Assembly: GCF_000018305.1 (NCBI RefSeq)
Contig: NC_009954.1
Coordinates: 1,620,001 to 1,652,000, forward strand
DNA length: 32,000 nt
Source of the DNA: Caldivirga maquilingensis IC-167
Lineage (GTDB): Archaea; Thermoproteota; Thermoprotei; Thermoproteales; Thermocladiaceae
Direction: 5' to 3'
The notes beneath the pieces were generated by a model. It ran no database searches. It saw only the letters and a list, made by a program, of their open reading frames with translations, and had not been told where the DNA came from. A program made the position numbers and the translations under genes. Positions 3,140-23,288 of the stretch are shown piece after piece. Each line of letters begins with the position of its first letter. The first letter of the stretch is position 1.

Positions 3140-4420
3140 GTGGGGTCAGGATACAGTAATATACAGGTAGTGTTTAATTGGCGTAATGTAATCGGTTCCA
3201 TGCTTGGTTGGGGAATGGATGCTTACGACTTTGTTGCATACGATTTTGTGGCACCGGTTATAAAGGATTTATTCTTCGGTCAATTAGGCAGCTTAGGATC
3301 CATGCTAGCGACACTGGCAGTATTCAGCTTATCTCTAGTCGTTAGGCCACTTGGTGGCGTATTCTTCGGTAATTTATCTGATAAAATAGGTAGGCGTTAT
3401 GTACTTTACGTAACCATGTTAGGTGCAGGAATATCCAGTTTCTTAATGGGCTTTCTACCAACTTATGCTCAAGCCGGGTTAACCGCAATAATACTTCTTC
3501 TCCTTTTAAGGTTCGCGGTGGGCTTTTTCCTTGGTGGGGAATACTCATCAAGCGGTATTATGAGCGTGGAGAGTGTTACTAAGTGGAGGGGGCTCGCCAG
3601 TGGCATTATGCAGGCTGGTTTTGATATAGGTATCTTCGGGGTCACCTTTACATACACTATTGTTGCAACATACCTACCCAGTAGCGCAATGAGCACCATA
3701 GGTTGGAGGATCGTATTCTGGAGCGGCATAGTAACAACCATATTAGCCTTCATATTTAGAAGAAGGTTCCTAACGGAATCCCCTGAATGGGAGAAGGCGG
3801 AGAAGGTTAAGAGTCCATATAAGGTTCTATTTAAGAATTATTGGTTACCAATGTTAACCATTCTTCTAGCAACAATGGGATTCCTCTACGAGTACTATGT
3901 TATGCTTGAGTTATCACCATTTATACTTCAGAGCGTTCTAAGTTACTCAGCTGCATTATCCGGGTTAATACTAACAGTGCTTTCAGCTAGTGACGCAGCA
4001 GGTAGTGTGTTTGGTGGTGTGCTTGTGGATTTACTGAGAAGCTCCAGGAGAGCCTTATTAGTAACATCATTAATAATCCTAGTACTAATATATCCAACAA
4101 TGTATGGGGTATTAATTAATGGTAATGGCTGGCTTGTACTACTCTGGGATTTCCTAGCCGTGCTACCAGTCGGGGTTATGCAGGTTTATATTAGGGATCT
4201 TTTACCAGTTAACGTTAGATCCACAGGGGCTGGTTTAGGTTATAATGGTGGAACCTGGTTAGCTGCCTGGGCAGCATTAATAGCTACATTAATGGCCTCA
4301 GCATCAACTAAGCCTCAACCATGGTTATCATCAATAACAATTAATACATTAATAGGAGCAGTATTAATGATAATTAGCTTCATCCTAGCGGCTAAGGCAA
4401 TTAAATCACATTCACAATGA
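3140..4420 (+). CDS. MFS transporter, metabolite:H+ symporter (MHS)-like
   Basis: About 12 hydrophobic segments. MHS-type motifs are present: (D/E)xYDF near the N-terminus, GRRYVLYVTMLGAGISSFLMGFLP, and R..VGFFLGGEYSSS....ES....RG. GTG start. Confidence 0.85.
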   Translation: MGSGYSNIQVVFNWRNVIGSMLGWGMDAYDFVAYDFVAPVIKDLFFGQLGSLGSMLATLAVFSLSLVVRPLGGVFFGNLSDKIGRRYVLYVTMLGAGISSFLMGFLPTYAQAGLTAIILLLLLRFAVGFFLGGEYSSSGIMSVESVTKWRGLASGIMQAGFDIGIFGVTFTYTIVATYLPSSAMSTIGWRIVFWSGIVTTILAFIFRRRFLTESPEWEKAEKVKSPYKVLFKNYWLPMLTILLATMGFLYEYYVMLELSPFILQSVLSYSAALSGLILTVLSASDAAGSVFGGVLVDLLRSSRRALLVTSLIILVLIYPTMYGVLINGNGWLVLLWDFLAVLPVGVMQVYIRDLLPVNVRSTGAGLGYNGGTWLAAWAALIATLMASASTKPQPWLSSITINTLIGAVLMIISFILAAKAIKSHSQ

Positions 4421-4492
4421 ATCAATGACTTAAATCACCATGTAATAATATTATCCACCTAGTCCACTAGACTTTCCCCCATTTCACTTATT

Positions 4493-4587
4493 TTCACCTG
4501 CTTCATAATCGACCCATACCATTCTTTTCACTAAGGAGTATGCTAAGTCCCCTTAAAGTTTTCAGTGGGTTTTATGAAGCAGGTGAA
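4493..4587. repeat. Perfect 16-bp inverted repeat (ttcacctgcttcataa / ttatgaagcaggtgaa) separated by 63 nt
   Basis: The arms at 4493-4508 and 4572-4587 are exact reverse complements. They lie in the 226-bp spacer between the MFS gene and the hutG-like gene. Confidence 0.7.
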
Positions 4588-4646: not shown

Positions 4647-5564
4647 ATGAGTAATTTAAGGAATGATCCACCTTTCTTAAGGAAATCCATGTATAAGTTC
4701 ATTAAGGATCCTGGTGATGTTAGGATTGGTGAGGTTGTTAAAAGGGATTGGATTAGTGGGGACGTGGGAATACTGGGTGTACCATGGGATGGGGCAGTGG
4801 GTACTAGGCCTGGTTCCAGACTTGCCCCATCTAGAATTAGAAGCCTTCTCTATACTCAACCTTACACATTTCATGACTTAACCATTATTGATTTCGGTGA
4901 TGTTGATGTTGTTATTGGTGACCACAATGAGACTTGGCGTAGAACCGAGGCCACTGTTTCTGAGGCTTTAGGCTTAGTTAAGGAGCTTATCGTCATTGGT
5001 GGTGATAGTACAATATCCTACGCTACTTTCAGGGGCTTGAGGAGGACCACTGATAACTTAGCTTACATACTTTTTGATGCTCACCCAGATGTTAGACTGG
5101 TGGATGAGGGATTAACCAGTGGTCAAGTGGTTAGATGGATTAGGAGTATTAGTTCAAACGCGTATATTGCTATAATTGGGGTTAGGAAATACTCAAATGC
5201 ACCCTACCTATTCAGTGAATCTGAGAAGTTGGGAATCAAGGTCTATACTATGGATCAAGTGGACTCAATGGGTATAGAAGCCGTGGTGAATGATATTGAG
5301 AATAATGTGAAGAATAGGATCACCCATGTGAGCATTAACCTTGATGTTGTTGATCCAGCCTTCGCCCCAGGCGTTAATAGTCCATCACCAGGGGGATTCA
5401 CTTCAAGGGAAGTAATTAGGATTATTGCGGAATTAAGTAGGAGAATAAGGCCTAGGGTTTTTGATGTTGTTGAGGTTACGCCACCCTTTGATAATAATGA
5501 TTTAACAAGTATGCTGGCTTCAGTAATAATAATGAATGCAATATGGGTTAAGCAATTGCCTTAA
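4647..5564 (+). CDS. hutG: Arginase/ureohydrolase-fold protein, formimidoylglutamase candidate by context
   Basis: Ureohydrolase motifs are present: GGDST (canonical GGDHS), FDAHPD, and SINLDVVDPAFAPGV (canonical S.D.D..DP..APG). The gene is embedded among hutU/H/I. Two canonical metal ligands appear to be substituted (see findings). Confidence 0.7.
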   Translation: MSNLRNDPPFLRKSMYKFIKDPGDVRIGEVVKRDWISGDVGILGVPWDGAVGTRPGSRLAPSRIRSLLYTQPYTFHDLTIIDFGDVDVVIGDHNETWRRTEATVSEALGLVKELIVIGGDSTISYATFRGLRRTTDNLAYILFDAHPDVRLVDEGLTSGQVVRWIRSISSNAYIAIIGVRKYSNAPYLFSESEKLGIKVYTMDQVDSMGIEAVVNDIENNVKNRITHVSINLDVVDPAFAPGVNSPSPGGFTSREVIRIIAELSRRIRPRVFDVVEVTPPFDNNDLTSMLASVIIMNAIWVKQLP

Positions 5565-5573
5565 AATTATGAT

Positions 5574-7067
5574 TCAAGCCAAGTGATCAATTTTAAGGTT
5601 TATTAGACTTGCCAACTCATTAATGGAATTGGTTAATTTAGCCACAGCTTCATGATGGGATTGGGAACCGGTAACATACCTATTGATTATATCGTAAACA
5701 TGCATTGATACCTTACCGCAGTTCACGCAACCATTATTTGCATTAATCACTGAGTAGCTGACGTATGCTAATAATGATATTAACCATTTCATTAATGAGT
5801 TAACTTCATGGAGCTTAATAGCTGAATTAACGCTCATTGAGTTAACGTCCTCCTGAAGACCACTGGTTGGTATATTGTGAATAATGGATGGTGAAGCCAA
5901 TTCCCTAAGCCTAGCAGTTAATGCTGCAGCGGCGTATTGGGTTAGCATTAATCCAATTCGCCAAGGTCCATTAGCCAGGTAATTACTGGTATTGTTTATT
6001 TCCCTCCTCATTAATTGGGCTATCTGCCTCTCAAGTAGGTTGCCTAGGGTGGATAATGATGTGTTGAGGAGGTCAGTGGATAATGCCAGGTATTGGCCGT
6101 GGAAGTGGCATGTTGAGTATACGTTATCATTAATAATCACTGGGTTATCACTCACGGAGTTAACCTCATTCATAATATTGCGTAGGGACCATGATAATGC
6201 ATCCATAATAGGTCCAATTACCTGTGGAATACATCTAATTGAGTATGGGTCCTGAACCCTACCACTGGTGTTTACATTCGCACTATCACTTAGCGACTCC
6301 TGTATAATTCTCGCCACTTCAACTTCACCATAATGCAGCTTAATGGAGTTAACCTCAATACTGAGTGGCCGTATACTTGCCCGTGAAGCCTCAATCATAA
6401 GTATGATAATTGCCATTGCAGCCCTTATCAATGTGTATGCATCCCAAATACCCAAGGAGGCTAGGGCAGCGCTGTAGCTGGTTCCATTAATTAACGATAA
6501 TGCCTCCTTATAACCAAGCCTTAATTCATCAAGACCCAATGCCTTAAACACCTCAGCGCTATTCATGACTTCATTGCGATACTTAACCAAACCCTTACCG
6601 AGTAATGCAAGGGCTATGTGAGCCAGGGGTGCTAAGTCACCGGATGCCCCCACTGATCCATACTTGGGGACAAGTGGAGTTATGTTGAGGTTTAGGAATT
6701 GAATTAATCTTTCAATAATTCGACCCCTAATGCCGCTATAACCCAATGATAATTGATGCGCCCTAATTAACATGGTAGCCCTAACCCAATCATCAGGTGC
6801 GTAATCACCAACACCCATGGAATGATCAATAAGCATCTCCAGCGAGTACCTTGCAACATCCTCCGGATTAACGGTAACATTATGTAAGTCACCAAGACCA
6901 GTGTTAACACCATAAATCTTAATGCCACTGTTAACGGCTTTCTCAAGCACATCCAGTGATTTATTCATTAAATTTAAGGCACGTTCACTTACCTTAACCT
7001 CCTCGTGGTTTCGAGCAACATTAACCACATCAACAAGGTTAATTCTTTCCCCAATTTCCACCGTCAT
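5574..7067 (-). CDS. hutH: Histidine ammonia-lyase
   Basis: The MIO-forming motif GSVGASGDLAPLAH is present, with full-length HAL/PAL-family similarity (SLINGT, QDPYS.RC.PQV). Confidence 0.93.
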   Translation of the reverse strand: MTVEIGERINLVDVVNVARNHEEVKVSERALNLMNKSLDVLEKAVNSGIKIYGVNTGLGDLHNVTVNPEDVARYSLEMLIDHSMGVGDYAPDDWVRATMLIRAHQLSLGYSGIRGRIIERLIQFLNLNITPLVPKYGSVGASGDLAPLAHIALALLGKGLVKYRNEVMNSAEVFKALGLDELRLGYKEALSLINGTSYSAALASLGIWDAYTLIRAAMAIIILMIEASRASIRPLSIEVNSIKLHYGEVEVARIIQESLSDSANVNTSGRVQDPYSIRCIPQVIGPIMDALSWSLRNIMNEVNSVSDNPVIINDNVYSTCHFHGQYLALSTDLLNTSLSTLGNLLERQIAQLMRREINNTSNYLANGPWRIGLMLTQYAAAALTARLRELASPSIIHNIPTSGLQEDVNSMSVNSAIKLHEVNSLMKWLISLLAYVSYSVINANNGCVNCGKVSMHVYDIINRYVTGSQSHHEAVAKLTNSINELASLINLKIDHLA

Positions 7068-14477: not shown

Positions 14478-15011
14478 GTGAGTGCAATGGCATTATACAC
14501 GCCGTGGAGAATGGATTACATAACCGGGGCTATTGATAATAAGGAGTCGGGATGCTTCATGTGCAGGGCCGTTAACAGTAATGATGAATTAGTAGTCTAT
14601 AGGGGTAATTACTGCATAGTGATAATGAATAAGTACCCTTATAATAGGGGTCACTTACTCATAGCCCCTAAGAGGCATGTACCGGGTATAGTGGATTTAA
14701 CCGATGAGGAGTTGATGGAGTGCGCAATGTTGATTAAGGCATCCACCTGCGCGTTAAGTGAATTACTTAAGCCAGTGGACTTCAATATTGGTGTTAACGT
14801 GGGTAGGATTGCCGGTGCCGGTTACGAGGAGCATGTTCACTTCCACATAGTACCTAGGTGGAATGGTGACGTAAACAGTATCCCAGTTAAATACACCCTT
14901 GATGCGGTTATTAATGACATTAAGGAATTAATACCAGAGTTGAGCAAACTAATGAGGAGGTGCATGAGTAATGATGGTGGTGGCCCAGAGGTTCATACCA
15001 ATAAGGGTTAA
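14478..15011 (+). CDS. HIT-family nucleotide hydrolase/transferase
   Basis: The histidine triad HVHFHIVPRW is present. The N-terminal PWRMDYI and the NKYPYNRGHLLI motif are typical of the HIT/Ap4A-phosphorylase-like branch. GTG start, preceded by GGAGG. Confidence 0.88.
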   Translation: MSAMALYTPWRMDYITGAIDNKESGCFMCRAVNSNDELVVYRGNYCIVIMNKYPYNRGHLLIAPKRHVPGIVDLTDEELMECAMLIKASTCALSELLKPVDFNIGVNVGRIAGAGYEEHVHFHIVPRWNGDVNSIPVKYTLDAVINDIKELIPELSKLMRRCMSNDGGGPEVHTNKG

Positions 15012-15027
15012 TGTTGGACCAGTTACA

Positions 15028-15219
15028 ATGGGTACCGGCATTAACCTAGATGACTTCCTAAGACGCGTAAACACTGCTGTTAATGAGATTGGTAAGGAGT
15101 TAGCAACCAAGGGGAATATTAAGACAATGGGCTTCACCATGACTCAAATAACGGTAAGCAACATTGATGGACTCCTAATAGTGGGCTGGGCATACTTAAC
15201 CAATGACTCGCAATCCTAG
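15028..15219 (+). CDS. Hypothetical small protein (63 aa from ATG 15028; 82 aa if it starts at 14971)
   Basis: ORF only, and I recognise no motif. The longer version would overlap HIT by 41 nt. Confidence 0.3.
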   Translation: MGTGINLDDFLRRVNTAVNEIGKELATKGNIKTMGFTMTQITVSNIDGLLIVGWAYLTNDSQS

Positions 15220-15254
15220 GCTCAATAGTAAAGCCACCTATTGATAATAAAGAA

Positions 15255-15262
15255 TTTTAAAA
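15255..15262 (+). promoter_or_regulatory. TATA-like element (TTTTAAAA) upstream of the MNT-like/HEPN pair
   Basis: It sits 20-27 nt upstream of the GTG at 15282, in an AT-rich spacer. Confidence 0.4.
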
Positions 15263-15281
15263 AAGCCTAAAAACCAATACT

Positions 15282-15866
15282 GTGGCACTTGTAATTAACC
15301 TAAGAAGTGATTGGTGGCTTAGCCTCTATGAATTTACCAGAATCCTTCATCATAAACTCGGTGATTCACTAATCATGGTTATTGGATCACAGAACGGGGA
15401 ACCAATACTTAATGATACGAATACTTTAGTAGTCGTCCGTAGCATTGATGATAATGTTAAATTAAGCGCCGCTGAAGCTGCATTGAAAGTTAATGATAAG
15501 TTTAAGAACACGATAAGTTACATGATAACGACTGAAGATGATAAGGAAACAATAAGTAAATTCATTCATATATCTCCTGAGGATTGGTCGGATTATGAAG
15601 ATGCATTACGTGAATTCAAACAGTTACTTAAAGAGAATTTAGGGGATGAGCTTACTTCAATCATTGCACTACCTAAGGGTATCTTCATTAATGAAAGTAA
15701 TGTACTCGTAATCGTTAATGAGATTAAAAATGATGTAAGACTTAAAGTTGCTAAGGCTGCATTAGAGGTTAATGATAAGTTTAAGAGCACTATAAGCTAC
15801 ATGATAGTAGATAAGGGAGACCATGACATCATATCCAAGTTTAGGGAAATCGGACAAGTTAATTAA
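15282..15866 (+). CDS. Tandem-duplicated minimal-nucleotidyltransferase (MNT)-like protein lacking the catalytic DxD motif
   Basis: Two repeats of about 93 aa. R1 is ..EFTRILHHKLGDSLIMVIGSQNGEPILNDTNTLVVV...AALKVNDKFKNTISYMI...ISKF. R2 is ..EFKQLLKENLGDELTSIIALPKGIFINESNVLVIV...AALEVNDKFKSTISYMI...ISKF. Both align to the bona fide MNT in this window (VYLFGSVAEGTYTLSSDIDVLVV). GS is kept only in R1, and DxD is replaced in both copies. Confidence 0.6.
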   Translation: MALVINLRSDWWLSLYEFTRILHHKLGDSLIMVIGSQNGEPILNDTNTLVVVRSIDDNVKLSAAEAALKVNDKFKNTISYMITTEDDKETISKFIHISPEDWSDYEDALREFKQLLKENLGDELTSIIALPKGIFINESNVLVIVNEIKNDVRLKVAKAALEVNDKFKSTISYMIVDKGDHDIISKFREIGQVN

Positions 15867-16176
15867 GGAGGCGCAGTTGGATTTAGAGGTAGGAAATCTC
15901 AACAAATGTGCGTCTGCGAGTTACTTTTCAGTGACAAGAGCTGTGGAGAAGCTACTGGAGAGGGCACGTATGAACGTACCCAGGAGGGATGATGAGTTGG
16001 CTAATGTACTTAAGCACATGGGTTACACTGAAGAGGCTGTGTTAATGCTTTACTTATATGAGATGAGGAAGAGAGCTGATTATACTGATTACGAAATAAC
16101 AATTAAGGAAGCACGTAAAGCCTTGGAGATAGCTATAAGATTAAGGAACCTAATTATACAAATCATGACGCAGTAA
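15823..16176 (+). CDS. HEPN-domain protein (COG1895-like)
   Basis: A four-helix pattern: ...CASASYFSVTRAVEKLL......LYEMRKRADYTDYEITIKEARKALEIA. It resembles the HEPN consensus (a.s.aYYA...a..aLL ... R..aDY .... t.eeA). It overlaps the upstream MNT-like gene by 44 nt. Confidence 0.6.
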   Translation: MTSYPSLGKSDKLIKEAQLDLEVGNLNKCASASYFSVTRAVEKLLERARMNVPRRDDELANVLKHMGYTEEAVLMLYLYEMRKRADYTDYEITIKEARKALEIAIRLRNLIIQIMTQ

Positions 16177-16194: not shown

Positions 16195-16199
16195 TTTTT
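16195..16199 (+). terminator. Oligo-T run downstream of the HEPN gene
   Basis: TTTTT begins 19 nt after the stop codon. Archaeal termination commonly uses oligo-T tracts. Confidence 0.3.
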
Positions 16200-22594: not shown

Positions 22595-22981
22595 ATGAGC
22601 AGTAGGGATGAGATTAATACGTTAATTCGAAGGGCAAGGGATTTCCTAGCCACAGCCAGGTACCAGTTCAATAATGGTATCTACGATTTAGCTGTCTTTA
22701 ACCTAGAGCAGTCCCTGCAACTCTTCCTGAAGGCAAGAATACTGGAACATGGTGTTCAATACCCCCGCACCAATAGTATTAGGTATTTACTGAAATTCCT
22801 TCATGATATAGCTCATGATTACGAGAAGCCAATAATCAGTGGCATTCTTAGTAAATACCTCTTCGAGCTGGGTGTTCTCGAGGACGCGTATATAAATGCT
22901 CGTTACGTTCCTAGAGAGTACACTAGGGAGGAGGCTGAGGCCCTCATTAAGGTTGTGGAGGAGGTGATGAATAGTGTATGA
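22595..22981 (+). CDS. HEPN-domain protein (COG2250-type), toxin-like partner of MNT
   Basis: ARDFLATARYQFNNGIYDLAVFNLEQSLQLFLKA... and the C-terminal LEDAYINARYVPREYTREEAE match classical HEPN (..yYIptRYP...yt.eeA). GGTGA lies 5-9 nt upstream of the ATG. Confidence 0.85.
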   Translation: MSSRDEINTLIRRARDFLATARYQFNNGIYDLAVFNLEQSLQLFLKARILEHGVQYPRTNSIRYLLKFLHDIAHDYEKPIISGILSKYLFELGVLEDAYINARYVPREYTREEAEALIKVVEEVMNSV

Positions 22982-23288
22982 TTATTTAATTAATGAAGCG
23001 AAGAAAAGGCAGGAGATCTTCAGGAATCTAGACAAATACTTAAGAATCATTAAGGACACTGTTAAGGAATTGGATCAGGGGGCTGAGGTTTATTTATTCG
23101 GATCAGTGGCTGAGGGAACGTACACCTTATCCAGTGACATAGACGTATTAGTGGTAACTATGCTAAATCCAGGCATTGTACTTAAGAGGCTTTGGGAAGT
23201 GGGCATTAGGGATCCCTTTGAAGTACATGTACGGACACCAGATAAATTAAAATACTACAGTAGATTCAGTAAATTAATCAAGATGTAA
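22974..23288 (+). CDS. Minimal nucleotidyltransferase (MNT, Pol-beta superfamily)
   Basis: The canonical motif LFGSVAEGTYTLSSDIDVLVV (GS...DxD) is present. The GTG start overlaps the HEPN stop by 8 nt. Confidence 0.9.
   Translation: MYDYLINEAKKRQEIFRNLDKYLRIIKDTVKELDQGAEVYLFGSVAEGTYTLSSDIDVLVVTMLNPGIVLKRLWEVGIRDPFEVHVRTPDKLKYYSRFSKLIKM

Follow-up and report, generated by a model that had tools for sequence, protein, structure and literature searches.

A probable MNT-derived, tandemly duplicated partner of an archaeal HEPN-T protein in Caldivirga maquilingensis

Introduction

HEPN/MNT gene pairs are predicted to rank with the commonest toxin-antitoxin (TA)-like modules in prokaryotes, notably in thermophilic archaea (PMC7641770, PMC2701414), and the sole mechanism demonstrated for them relies on an active MNT that carries out AMPylation, as established in the DUF86 class. 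How, then, would a HEPN protein be controlled by a partner in which the MNT signature is degraded? The question is raised by a two-gene cassette on the chromosome of Caldivirga maquilingensis, within a stretch of 32,000 nucleotides (strain IC-167, NC_009954.1, positions 1,620,001 to 1,652,000; hereafter the window, whose own numbering is used throughout). On its forward strand a gene with a GTG start encodes a 194-aa protein (15282-15866) and is followed by the gene of a 117-aa HEPN-T protein (15823-16176), with a 44-nt overlap (15823-15866) of the operon-coupling type; these coordinates, taken from the open reading frame (ORF) list, agree with those of a first-pass annotation made from the sequence alone. 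The family to which it belongs would amount to a natural experiment, the apparent MNT partner being devoid of the GS/DxD signature, yet strictly HEPN-coupled, conserved and marked by an invariant Asn. We consider noteworthy the combination of a conserved pseudo-MNT, a co-changed HEPN motif and the apparent concerted evolution of the fused form; the role and mechanism discussed below are inferred.

Origin of the 194-aa protein

The internal duplication of the 194-aa protein is real and far beyond chance, the two halves being 47% identical over 89 aa (E 6e-25) and the repeats 71% identical over 119 nt at the DNA level, which bears out the first-pass description of the ORF as two copies of one module. 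The module, of about 94 aa, occurs as R1 (aa 1-94, 15282-15563) and R2 (aa 95-194, 15564-15866), as delimited by the alignment of the halves together with the AlphaFold2 (AF2) models, that of the single module in the case of R1.

In order to evaluate the ancestry of the module we have used a hidden Markov model (HMM) of the family, made from 31 diverse modules with the MNTs left out of its making. When applied to genuine PF01909 MNTs, this family HMM scores two of them, P0075 and P0076, with 44.3 and 27.3 bits respectively, while about 3000 shuffles of each reach a maximum of 15.9 and 13.0 bits; the P0075 match corresponds to E ~1e-6 when the test set of 9003 sequences is scaled up to the library of 1.84 billion proteins. 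The alignments are single stretches covering about 75-82 module positions. In agreement, hhalign aligns the family to an MNT alignment with 94.9% probability (E 4.6e-8, 79 columns), and the negative control, in which the family was compared to a HEPN alignment, results in 0.08%. The top sequence match in the PDB, at a weak E of 0.04, is African swine fever virus (ASFV) DNA polymerase X with an Asn at the second catalytic Asp, which we take to be an engineered substitution in the matched chains; its V-G-S-L...N-D-V-N-L-L-I-I-V is aligned to v-i-A-l-p...y-d-s-N-V-L-V-V-v of the family. An Asp-to-Asn change at this position inactivates enzymes of the Pol-beta family. The three independent alignments (Pol X, hhalign and the family HMM on MNTs) have one and the same register.

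The predicted structure is compatible with this origin. The AF2 model of a single module has a pLDDT (predicted local distance difference test) of 91.1 and a pTM (predicted template modelling score) of 0.81, and that of the full 194-aa protein a pLDDT of 82.4 and a pTM of 0.51, with low confidence in the linker between R1 and R2 (about aa 95-104). Each module is modelled as helix-strand-strand-helix-strand-helix (H-E-E-H-E-H), an order of elements that fits the MNT core. Foldseek searches of the PDB returned nothing at E <= 1e-3. The highest probabilities among single-domain matches belong to nucleotidyltransferase (NTase) domains, headed by AAD(9) (0.97, template modelling (TM) score 0.55), and further matches to the NTase fold comprise AadA (0.85-0.89), MntA (0.69-0.84), the minimal NTase 1wot (0.75) and RsfS (0.63-0.75). 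The best E-values for the single module, of about 0.03 and equal to or better than those of the NTases, correspond to the C-terminal domain of MamM and to Era. Thus, the predicted fold is compatible with the NTase fold, but not decisive.

Indeed, these top E-values, and the fact that no NTase is found at E <= 1e-3, would also fit a module that does not derive from MNTs at all, being instead a small alpha/beta domain of unrelated origin, such as a ferredoxin-like one (as in the C-terminal domain of MamM and the CDF proteins) or an RsfS-like one, that came by chance to have HEPN as its partner. In line with such an origin, the Pfam NTase models miss all 31 members, neither PF01909 nor PF18765 matching any of them at E <= 0.1, and the exhaustive search described below brings in spurious Big_9/cadherin giants. 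The MamM matches are however poor (TM 0.39-0.45, root-mean-square deviation 4.6-6.2 Å), and an unrelated domain is further contradicted by the scores of the genuine MNTs (44 and 27 bits, the shuffles not exceeding 16, over some 75-82 positions in a single stretch), by the hhalign probability of 94.9% with its clean control, by the common register of the three alignments and by a gene arrangement identical to that of an MNT followed by a PF05168 HEPN. We regard an unrelated domain as very improbable, and the module as very probably an MNT-derived partner of HEPN, mainly on the basis of the profile results and of the gene context. The first-pass proposal of an MNT derivative is thereby sustained, although on other grounds than those first given. 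It had relied on a residue-by-residue alignment with the window's own MNT (22974-23288), which is not recovered: the E-value in BLASTP is 80, and the score with the family HMM is 0.9 bits, below the shuffles of that same protein, so that this likeness was dropped as evidence of ancestry. The search of each half against PF01909 and PF18765 that it had suggested resulted in no match to either model; against the whole of Pfam, the 194-aa protein and each half yield nothing at E <= 10, whereas the true MNT of the window matches at E 2.9e-12.

No model of Pfam, NCBIfam, PADLOC or PHROGs recognises the 194-aa protein or either of its halves. Weak matches to DUF4211 and Phage_Gene33 lie far under the cut-offs and were rejected as family assignments. 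De novo designed TIM barrels, retrieved from the PDB with the full-length profile (E 1e-6), were likewise discarded as an artefact of repeats or composition, as no stretch passed. The literature searched holds no inactive or tandem MNT partner of HEPN, and in this respect the first-pass statement that the architecture is undescribed can be maintained. In the databases all members are named 'hypothetical protein', but for one JGI label, 'tetratricopeptide (TPR) repeat protein'.

State of the nucleotidyltransferase motifs

In the register common to the three alignments, GS has its counterpart in G35-S36 of R1 (I-G-S-Q) and in A-L of R2 (A-L-P), and DxD in D45-T46-N47 of R1 (15414-15422) and E138-S139-N140 of R2 (15693-15701). 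The first-pass annotation had recognised that GS survives only in R1 and that the NTase signature is degraded. Its further claim that the DxD aspartates are replaced in both copies applies to the second Asp only, which became Asn; the first carboxylate is kept, as D in R1 and as E in R2, the register proposed at that time being two residues off. Among the 31 modules N47 is the sole invariant column, with the preceding Ser and the following V-L-V-V nearly invariant, and the first DxD position is D or E in most modules and G in a few. The hG[GS] loop is not found: the family consensus is I-A-L-P, with I-G-L in some members and G-S only in R1 of the Caldivirga clade, and the loop from GS to DxD has 8 residues in the family versus 10 in P0075. 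No conserved acidic column is observed in or beside strand 3 (T-I-S-Y-M-I / I-S-P-L-I) across the 31 modules, in a region where the alignment to MNTs is unreliable.

These changes can be read against MntA, in which the beta and gamma phosphates are held by G27 and S28 and two Mg ions by D39, D41 and D71 (PMC7641770). In the family, most members have no GS, Asn takes the place of D41 and a counterpart of D71 is not evident, so that the module is probably not a conventional NTase; the lost G[GS], the shorter loop between the motifs, the substitution of the second metal Asp and the lack of a recognisable third carboxylate all count against an activity of the PF01909 type.

The HEPN-T partner

The 117-aa protein matches PF05168 with 25.4 bits (cut-off 22, E 1.7e-5), as do 10 out of 10 partners from other loci (best E 6.3e-10), so that the downstream gene is a HEPN gene, as had been proposed. 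When compared to solved structures, the profile of the partners is closest to AF0298 (2hsb, E 1e-8). We assign the protein to the HEPN-T class (PF05168), as defined by Anantharaman et al. 2013 (PMC3710099), and not to the DUF86 class; within HEPN-T its sequence places it in a distinct subfamily. The parallel with type VII HepT/MntA systems drawn in the first-pass annotation is therefore inexact, as the HEPN is there a DUF86 protein with Rx4HxY and here an AF0298-like HEPN-T with R-x4-Y.

Thirteen positions of the partner (K28, S31, Y34, F35, D56, D57, A60, N61, L78, R82, K83, A85 and D86) are invariant in the 10 members. In the subfamily helix 3 ends in the R...D-Y motif, position 87 being Tyr in 8 of the 10 and His in the remaining two, at loci L013 and L016, which results in R-x4-[Y/H]; in the window it reads R82-K-R-A-D86-Y87 (16066-16083), that is, R-x4-Y. 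A distinct scenario is seen in the insert between helices 2 and 3, where canonical HEPN-T proteins have a His, in the context P-R-T-H-S, S-K-T-H-R-G or A-K-H-S-G, which is predicted to be catalytic (PMC3710099). Instead of it, the partner subfamily has an invariant (P/T)-R-[RK]-D-D, which in the window is P-R54-R55-D56-D57.

This joint change of motifs, from GS/DxD to ALP/DSN in the module and from the His insert to RRDD in the HEPN, would be accounted for if the pair were still an enzyme, with D/E-S-N of the module and R-R-D-D of the HEPN forming a composite site for nucleotide and metal at the interface and the catalytic carboxylates being provided in trans, whereby nucleotidyl transfer or some other reaction would be maintained. 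In the MntA-HepT complex both proteins do contribute to the cavity that houses the nucleotide, which touches HepT residues (PMC7641770). Also, the invariance of N47, D56 and D57 argues for a specific function and not for decay. Kanamycin nucleotidyltransferase, composed of an NT and a HEPN-like domain, likewise has an active site built from both domains. Nevertheless, most members have lost the G[GS] loop for the beta and gamma phosphates, the loop being also shorter, the Asp-to-Asn change is the one that inactivates Pol-beta-family enzymes, and nothing places RRDD near DSN in three dimensions, so that we deem a composite enzyme improbable.

As to the database record of the partner, no NCBI entry for the C. 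maquilingensis 117-aa HEPN is found among the matches, the only near-identical one being a 99-aa Logan-derived sequence; the gene may be unannotated in the reference genome.

Distribution and gene context of the family

Word-indexed searches retrieve no more than 12 close homologues, each with two modules and coming from Caldivirga or from metagenome-assembled genomes (MAGs) labelled 'Thermoprotei archaeon', and a profile scan of genome contigs with the narrow alignment resulted in 4 loci. A wider family emerged from an exhaustive HMMER search with the single-module profile, which returned 68 hits at E <= 1e-3, a search whose E-values are not fully trustworthy given its spurious matches to giant proteins. 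About 58 of the hits are family clusters, with one module (~100 aa) or two (~170-230 aa), and two are the genuine PF01909 MNTs P0075 (E 1.5e-4) and P0076 (E 1.7e-4). The other eight are giant or repeat proteins (P0033, P0037, P0047, P0052, P0060, P0069, P0078 and P0081; 3-8 kaa, 8-18 stretches), rejected as relatives since P0033 and P0069 are Big_9/cadherin proteins and the others are presumed so from their size and number of stretches. Such giant bacterial proteins with immunoglobulin (Ig)/cadherin repeats attain E-values as low as 1e-14 with the module profile, since many weak stretches are added up.

By these searches the family is an unnamed one, without Pfam or NCBIfam name, of about 58 clusters from Thermoproteota-type archaea; the records specify Caldivirga, 'Thermoprotei archaeon', Crenarchaeota SCGC AAA471-B05 and a Candidatus Methanomethylicia MAG. 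Around 20 of the 58 clusters are two-module, about two thirds are single-module, and one partial protein has three modules. The two-in-one form is thus not the defining trait that it had been taken for, as the single-module clusters go along with the same HEPN. In fact, the same special HEPN subfamily lies directly downstream on the same strand in 17 out of 17 loci, from about 11 sequence lineages and comprising single- as well as two-module forms. The 5' coupling of the module gene to the HEPN gene is thereby confirmed, and the survey for co-occurrence that had been suggested finds the homologues co-located. The HEPN gene overlaps by 11-47 nt in L001, L008, L013, L014 and L015, and in L007, L016 and L017 it starts 7-19 nt beyond the module gene. 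The locus of P0075 has the same gene order as the cassette, the MNT gene lying 5' and sharing 4 nt with that of a PF05168 HEPN, which is 24% identical to the window HEPN and has in common with it R-x-R-A-D-Y-D-D.

The genes flanking the pair vary between lineages, and the distribution is patchy. In the window the neighbours are housekeeping genes (topoisomerase VI-A, HIT protein, PmbA/TldD and GatE); the synteny in Caldivirga sp. UBA161 is identical, both Caldivirga genomes having the same housekeeping flanks, so that the cassette has not entered the genus recently. The (recent) acquisition considered in the first-pass annotation is accordingly weak. No member was found on plasmids or viruses, either in the scan of viral contigs or by plasmid tblastn. 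At some loci the HEPN has decayed: only 63 aa of it are left in L005 and L006 (3257-3448), where the module gene is intact, as expected if the harmful partner decays first, and in L012 (2745-3047) it is frameshifted exactly in R-K-K-A-D-Y, within an A-rich stretch in which a sequencing error is possible.

Such stable flanks in both Caldivirga genomes and the absence from the plasmid and viral contigs searched are what a domesticated, non-toxic complex would show, one in which both partners lost their chemistry and serve the host as a heteromeric RNA- or nucleotide-binding or regulatory complex. The HEPN motifs are in line with this, as 8 of the 10 partners have R-x4-Y and not R-x4-H, and the His of PRTHS / SKTHRG has given way to RRDD; HEPN domains without catalytic residues are probably non-catalytic RNA binders (PMC3710099). 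The same source reports, however, a genome-scale toxin screen in which HEPNs devoid of the motif can still be toxic, and two lineages (L013 and L016) do have R-x4-H. Moreover, the patchy distribution and lineage-specific flanks are typical of TA-like selfish modules, as are the truncated or frameshifted HEPN genes, with the upstream gene intact in L005 and L006, the presence of other HEPN/MNT or PaREP1 genes nearby and the AT-rich gene. We therefore judge domestication unlikely, although worth serious consideration.

Other HEPN-superfamily genes are found close to members of the family. PaREP1 genes adjoin L001-L004 (~5090-5584; 6843-7325 in L003) and L008 (135-804), and in L013 (1737-2457) a canonical HEPN+MNT pair lies on the opposite strand beside the family locus, which suggests small islands of such modules. 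In the window itself, about 6.5 kb off, positions 22595-23288 hold a canonical pair of HEPN (PF05168, 98.8 bits) and MNT (PF01909), with the HEPN first, an order opposite to that of the cassette, and an 8-nt overlap; P-R-T-N-S in its HEPN stands in place of the P-R-T-H-S of relatives. No similarity between this pair and the cassette is detectable.

A possible mode of action by binding

As in TA modules, the cassette is a small two-gene operon with the presumed protective gene 5', a patchy spread and a variable context. We favour reading it as a diverged MNT/HEPN module of the thermophile type in which the pseudo-MNT is a stoichiometric binding partner, a proposal to which we give an even chance. 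The MNT-like protein would no longer AMPylate its HEPN partner and would act as a stoichiometric binder, that is, as an antitoxin or regulator of the type II kind, with the former active-site face (D/E-S-N) docking onto the catalytic cleft of the HEPN. Single-module members would be homodimers (2:2 with the HEPN), and in the two-module form such a dimer would be fused covalently and sit on one HEPN dimer (1:2), in keeping with the same HEPN being the partner of both forms; the two unlike first helices would make the contact of the two-module form asymmetric. That neutralisation or regulation is achieved by binding alone has, in our estimate, slightly less than an even chance.

A number of observations weigh against this proposal. 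A catalytically dead S. oneidensis MntA (D39E/D41E) binds HepT yet fails to neutralise it (PMC7641770), so that in that system binding alone is insufficient. The HEPN may be no toxin at all, the canonical His being absent from 8 of the 10 partners. The retention of the first carboxylate and of the invariant Asn leaves room for some ligand or metal binding by the module. With a pTM of 0.51, the orientation of the modules relative to each other is undefined in the AF2 model. To these should be added the failure of PF01909 and PF18765 to match any of the members and that of the window MNT to match the module, both described above.

Were neutralisation by binding to be the case, a transition from an enzymatic (type VII) to a stoichiometric (type II) mechanism would have occurred within one lineage, giving rise to a pseudoenzyme antitoxin. 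A bolder version, which we consider improbable, is that of a switch, in which the catalytic or ligand-binding residues of a type VII-like MNT/HEPN system were shared out anew between the partners, into a composite site of D/E-S-N and R-R-D-D, the antidote being repeatedly fused into an asymmetric pseudo-dimer that gene conversion would keep uniform except in helix 1. The outcome would be a pseudoenzyme-based or trans-complemented HEPN regulator without described counterpart.

Evolution of the repeats

The two-module proteins have a further property, which concerns the similarity of R1 and R2 within one gene. In at least 8 lineages the C-terminal ~50 aligned columns of the two repeats (from D/E-S-N on) are 100% identical at the protein level, while the first helix is only about 30-65% identical. 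The DNA identity between repeats ranges from 70% in L009, 71% in the window and 75% in L008 to 89-90% in L013, L010 and L014, and in L001 the repeats are 100% identical over 159 nt (4130-4288 = 4415-4573), with a sharp boundary. Homogenised repeats are also seen in the two-module homologues P0032, P0036, P0041, P0043, P0045 and P0050, with tract boundaries that vary.

In orthologous two-module proteins of Caldivirga and the L001 clade, helix 1 of R1 matches that of R1 and helix 1 of R2 that of R2, which implies that the duplication is older than the split between them; given this, gene conversion best accounts for the identical tracts, as concerted evolution inside one gene, from which Caldivirga (71% at the nucleotide level) would have escaped. 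The lasting divergence of helix 1, in spite of homogenisation elsewhere, suggests that the modules are required to be non-equivalent. Repeat homogenisation here illustrates clearly, and on a small scale, how a single gene can undergo concerted evolution, and the recurrent fusion from single to double form, with helix 1 escaping conversion, provides a handle on the stoichiometry and asymmetry of the complex. Some single-module forms (L011, P0065) resemble recombinants of an R1 head and an R2 tail; these may however be due to assembly collapse of identical repeats in metagenome or single-cell data.

Relation to known systems

The cassette resembles most, and descends from, the MNT/HEPN-T modules of thermophiles (PF01909 + PF05168; COG1708/COG1669 + COG2250; AF0298/UPF0332-like), which are enriched in thermophilic archaea (PMC2701414), as is the cassette. 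These modules, too, are made of two small genes that overlap, the one for the NTase-fold protein being 5' and that for the HEPN 3'; the cassette HEPN has the R-x-x-A-D-Y and the profile of the partners of active MNTs, and the cassette module is detectably homologous to some MNTs. The differences reside in the absence of the NTase signature, in RRDD taking the place of the insert His, in the frequent tandem fusion and in a module missed by Pfam.

Type VII HepT/MntA systems are alike in having an NTase-fold gene at the antitoxin position together with a HEPN gene and a Tyr by the R-motif of the HEPN, and MntA is among the better fold matches. However, HepT is a DUF86 protein with Rx4HxY, whereas the cassette HEPN belongs to PF05168 and has R82-K-R-A-D-Y87, without the His and without the Tyr at +2, and MntA has GSX10DXD (PMC7641770), a motif that is not intact in the cassette module. 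MntA oligo-AMPylates Tyr104 of HepT, and dead MntA binds it but fails to neutralise (PMC7641770, PMC11586414).

Covalent fusion of domains is also found in fused MNT-HEPN proteins (FhepTA; kanamycin nucleotidyltransferase and AadA-type aminoglycoside nucleotidyltransferases (ANTs)). These have active NTase sites (PMC13000451, PMC3710099), whereas the cassette fuses MNT-like to MNT-like, keeps the HEPN separate and has a degenerate site. The NT domains of AAD(9) and AadA are the highest-probability structural matches of the module. Finally, the ribosome-silencing factor RsfS/iojap is a small NTase-fold protein without catalytic residues which acts purely by binding. It is among the Foldseek matches of the module (0.63-0.75), but has no sequence link to it, no HEPN partner, another phyletic range and no tandem duplication.

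Gene start, base composition and signals

The NCBI annotation of the 194-aa gene is a 163-aa product starting at M32, and drops a conserved N-terminus of 31 residues which makes up most of helix 1 of R1. Residues 1-31 are kept in all homologues, with L3, S9, D10, W12, F18 and L22 invariant, and for that reason the GTG at 15282 is the better start; the start of the Caldivirga gene appears to be mis-annotated, judging from this conservation. Within this region the N-terminal 8-10 residues that precede helix 1 are of alternating hydrophobic character (A-L-V-I-N-L / P-I-V-L-E-M / Y-L-L-E-L). This segment is conserved in the window (15282-15305) and in the homologues and is modelled at a pLDDT below 50; it might become a strand only upon dimerisation or HEPN binding.

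The AT-richness that the first-pass annotation attributed to the whole cassette is confined to the 194-aa gene, the GC content being 0.33-0.35 at 15200-15800 versus 0.42-0.46 in the flanking regions, while the HEPN gene (0.39-0.41) is near the local average and outside the dip. The 82-aa ORF at 14971-15219 occupies the spacer ahead of the cassette and overlaps the 3' end of the HIT gene; as it has no family match, we have treated it as probably non-coding.

The TATA-like box and the oligo-T tract previously noted were both read directly. The former, TTTTAAAAAA (15255-15264, forward strand), is located ~20-27 nt 5' of the GTG, within an AT-rich spacer, which is consistent with a leaderless archaeal transcript; the latter is a T5 run (16195-16199, forward strand), 19 nt past the HEPN stop, that may serve as an archaeal terminator. 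A promoter/terminator scan found no hairpin-type terminator, its motifs being bacterial consensus sequences that are uninformative for an archaeon. Both elements are plausible archaeal signals, and A/T boxes resembling TTTTAAAAAA are also observed upstream of homologues.

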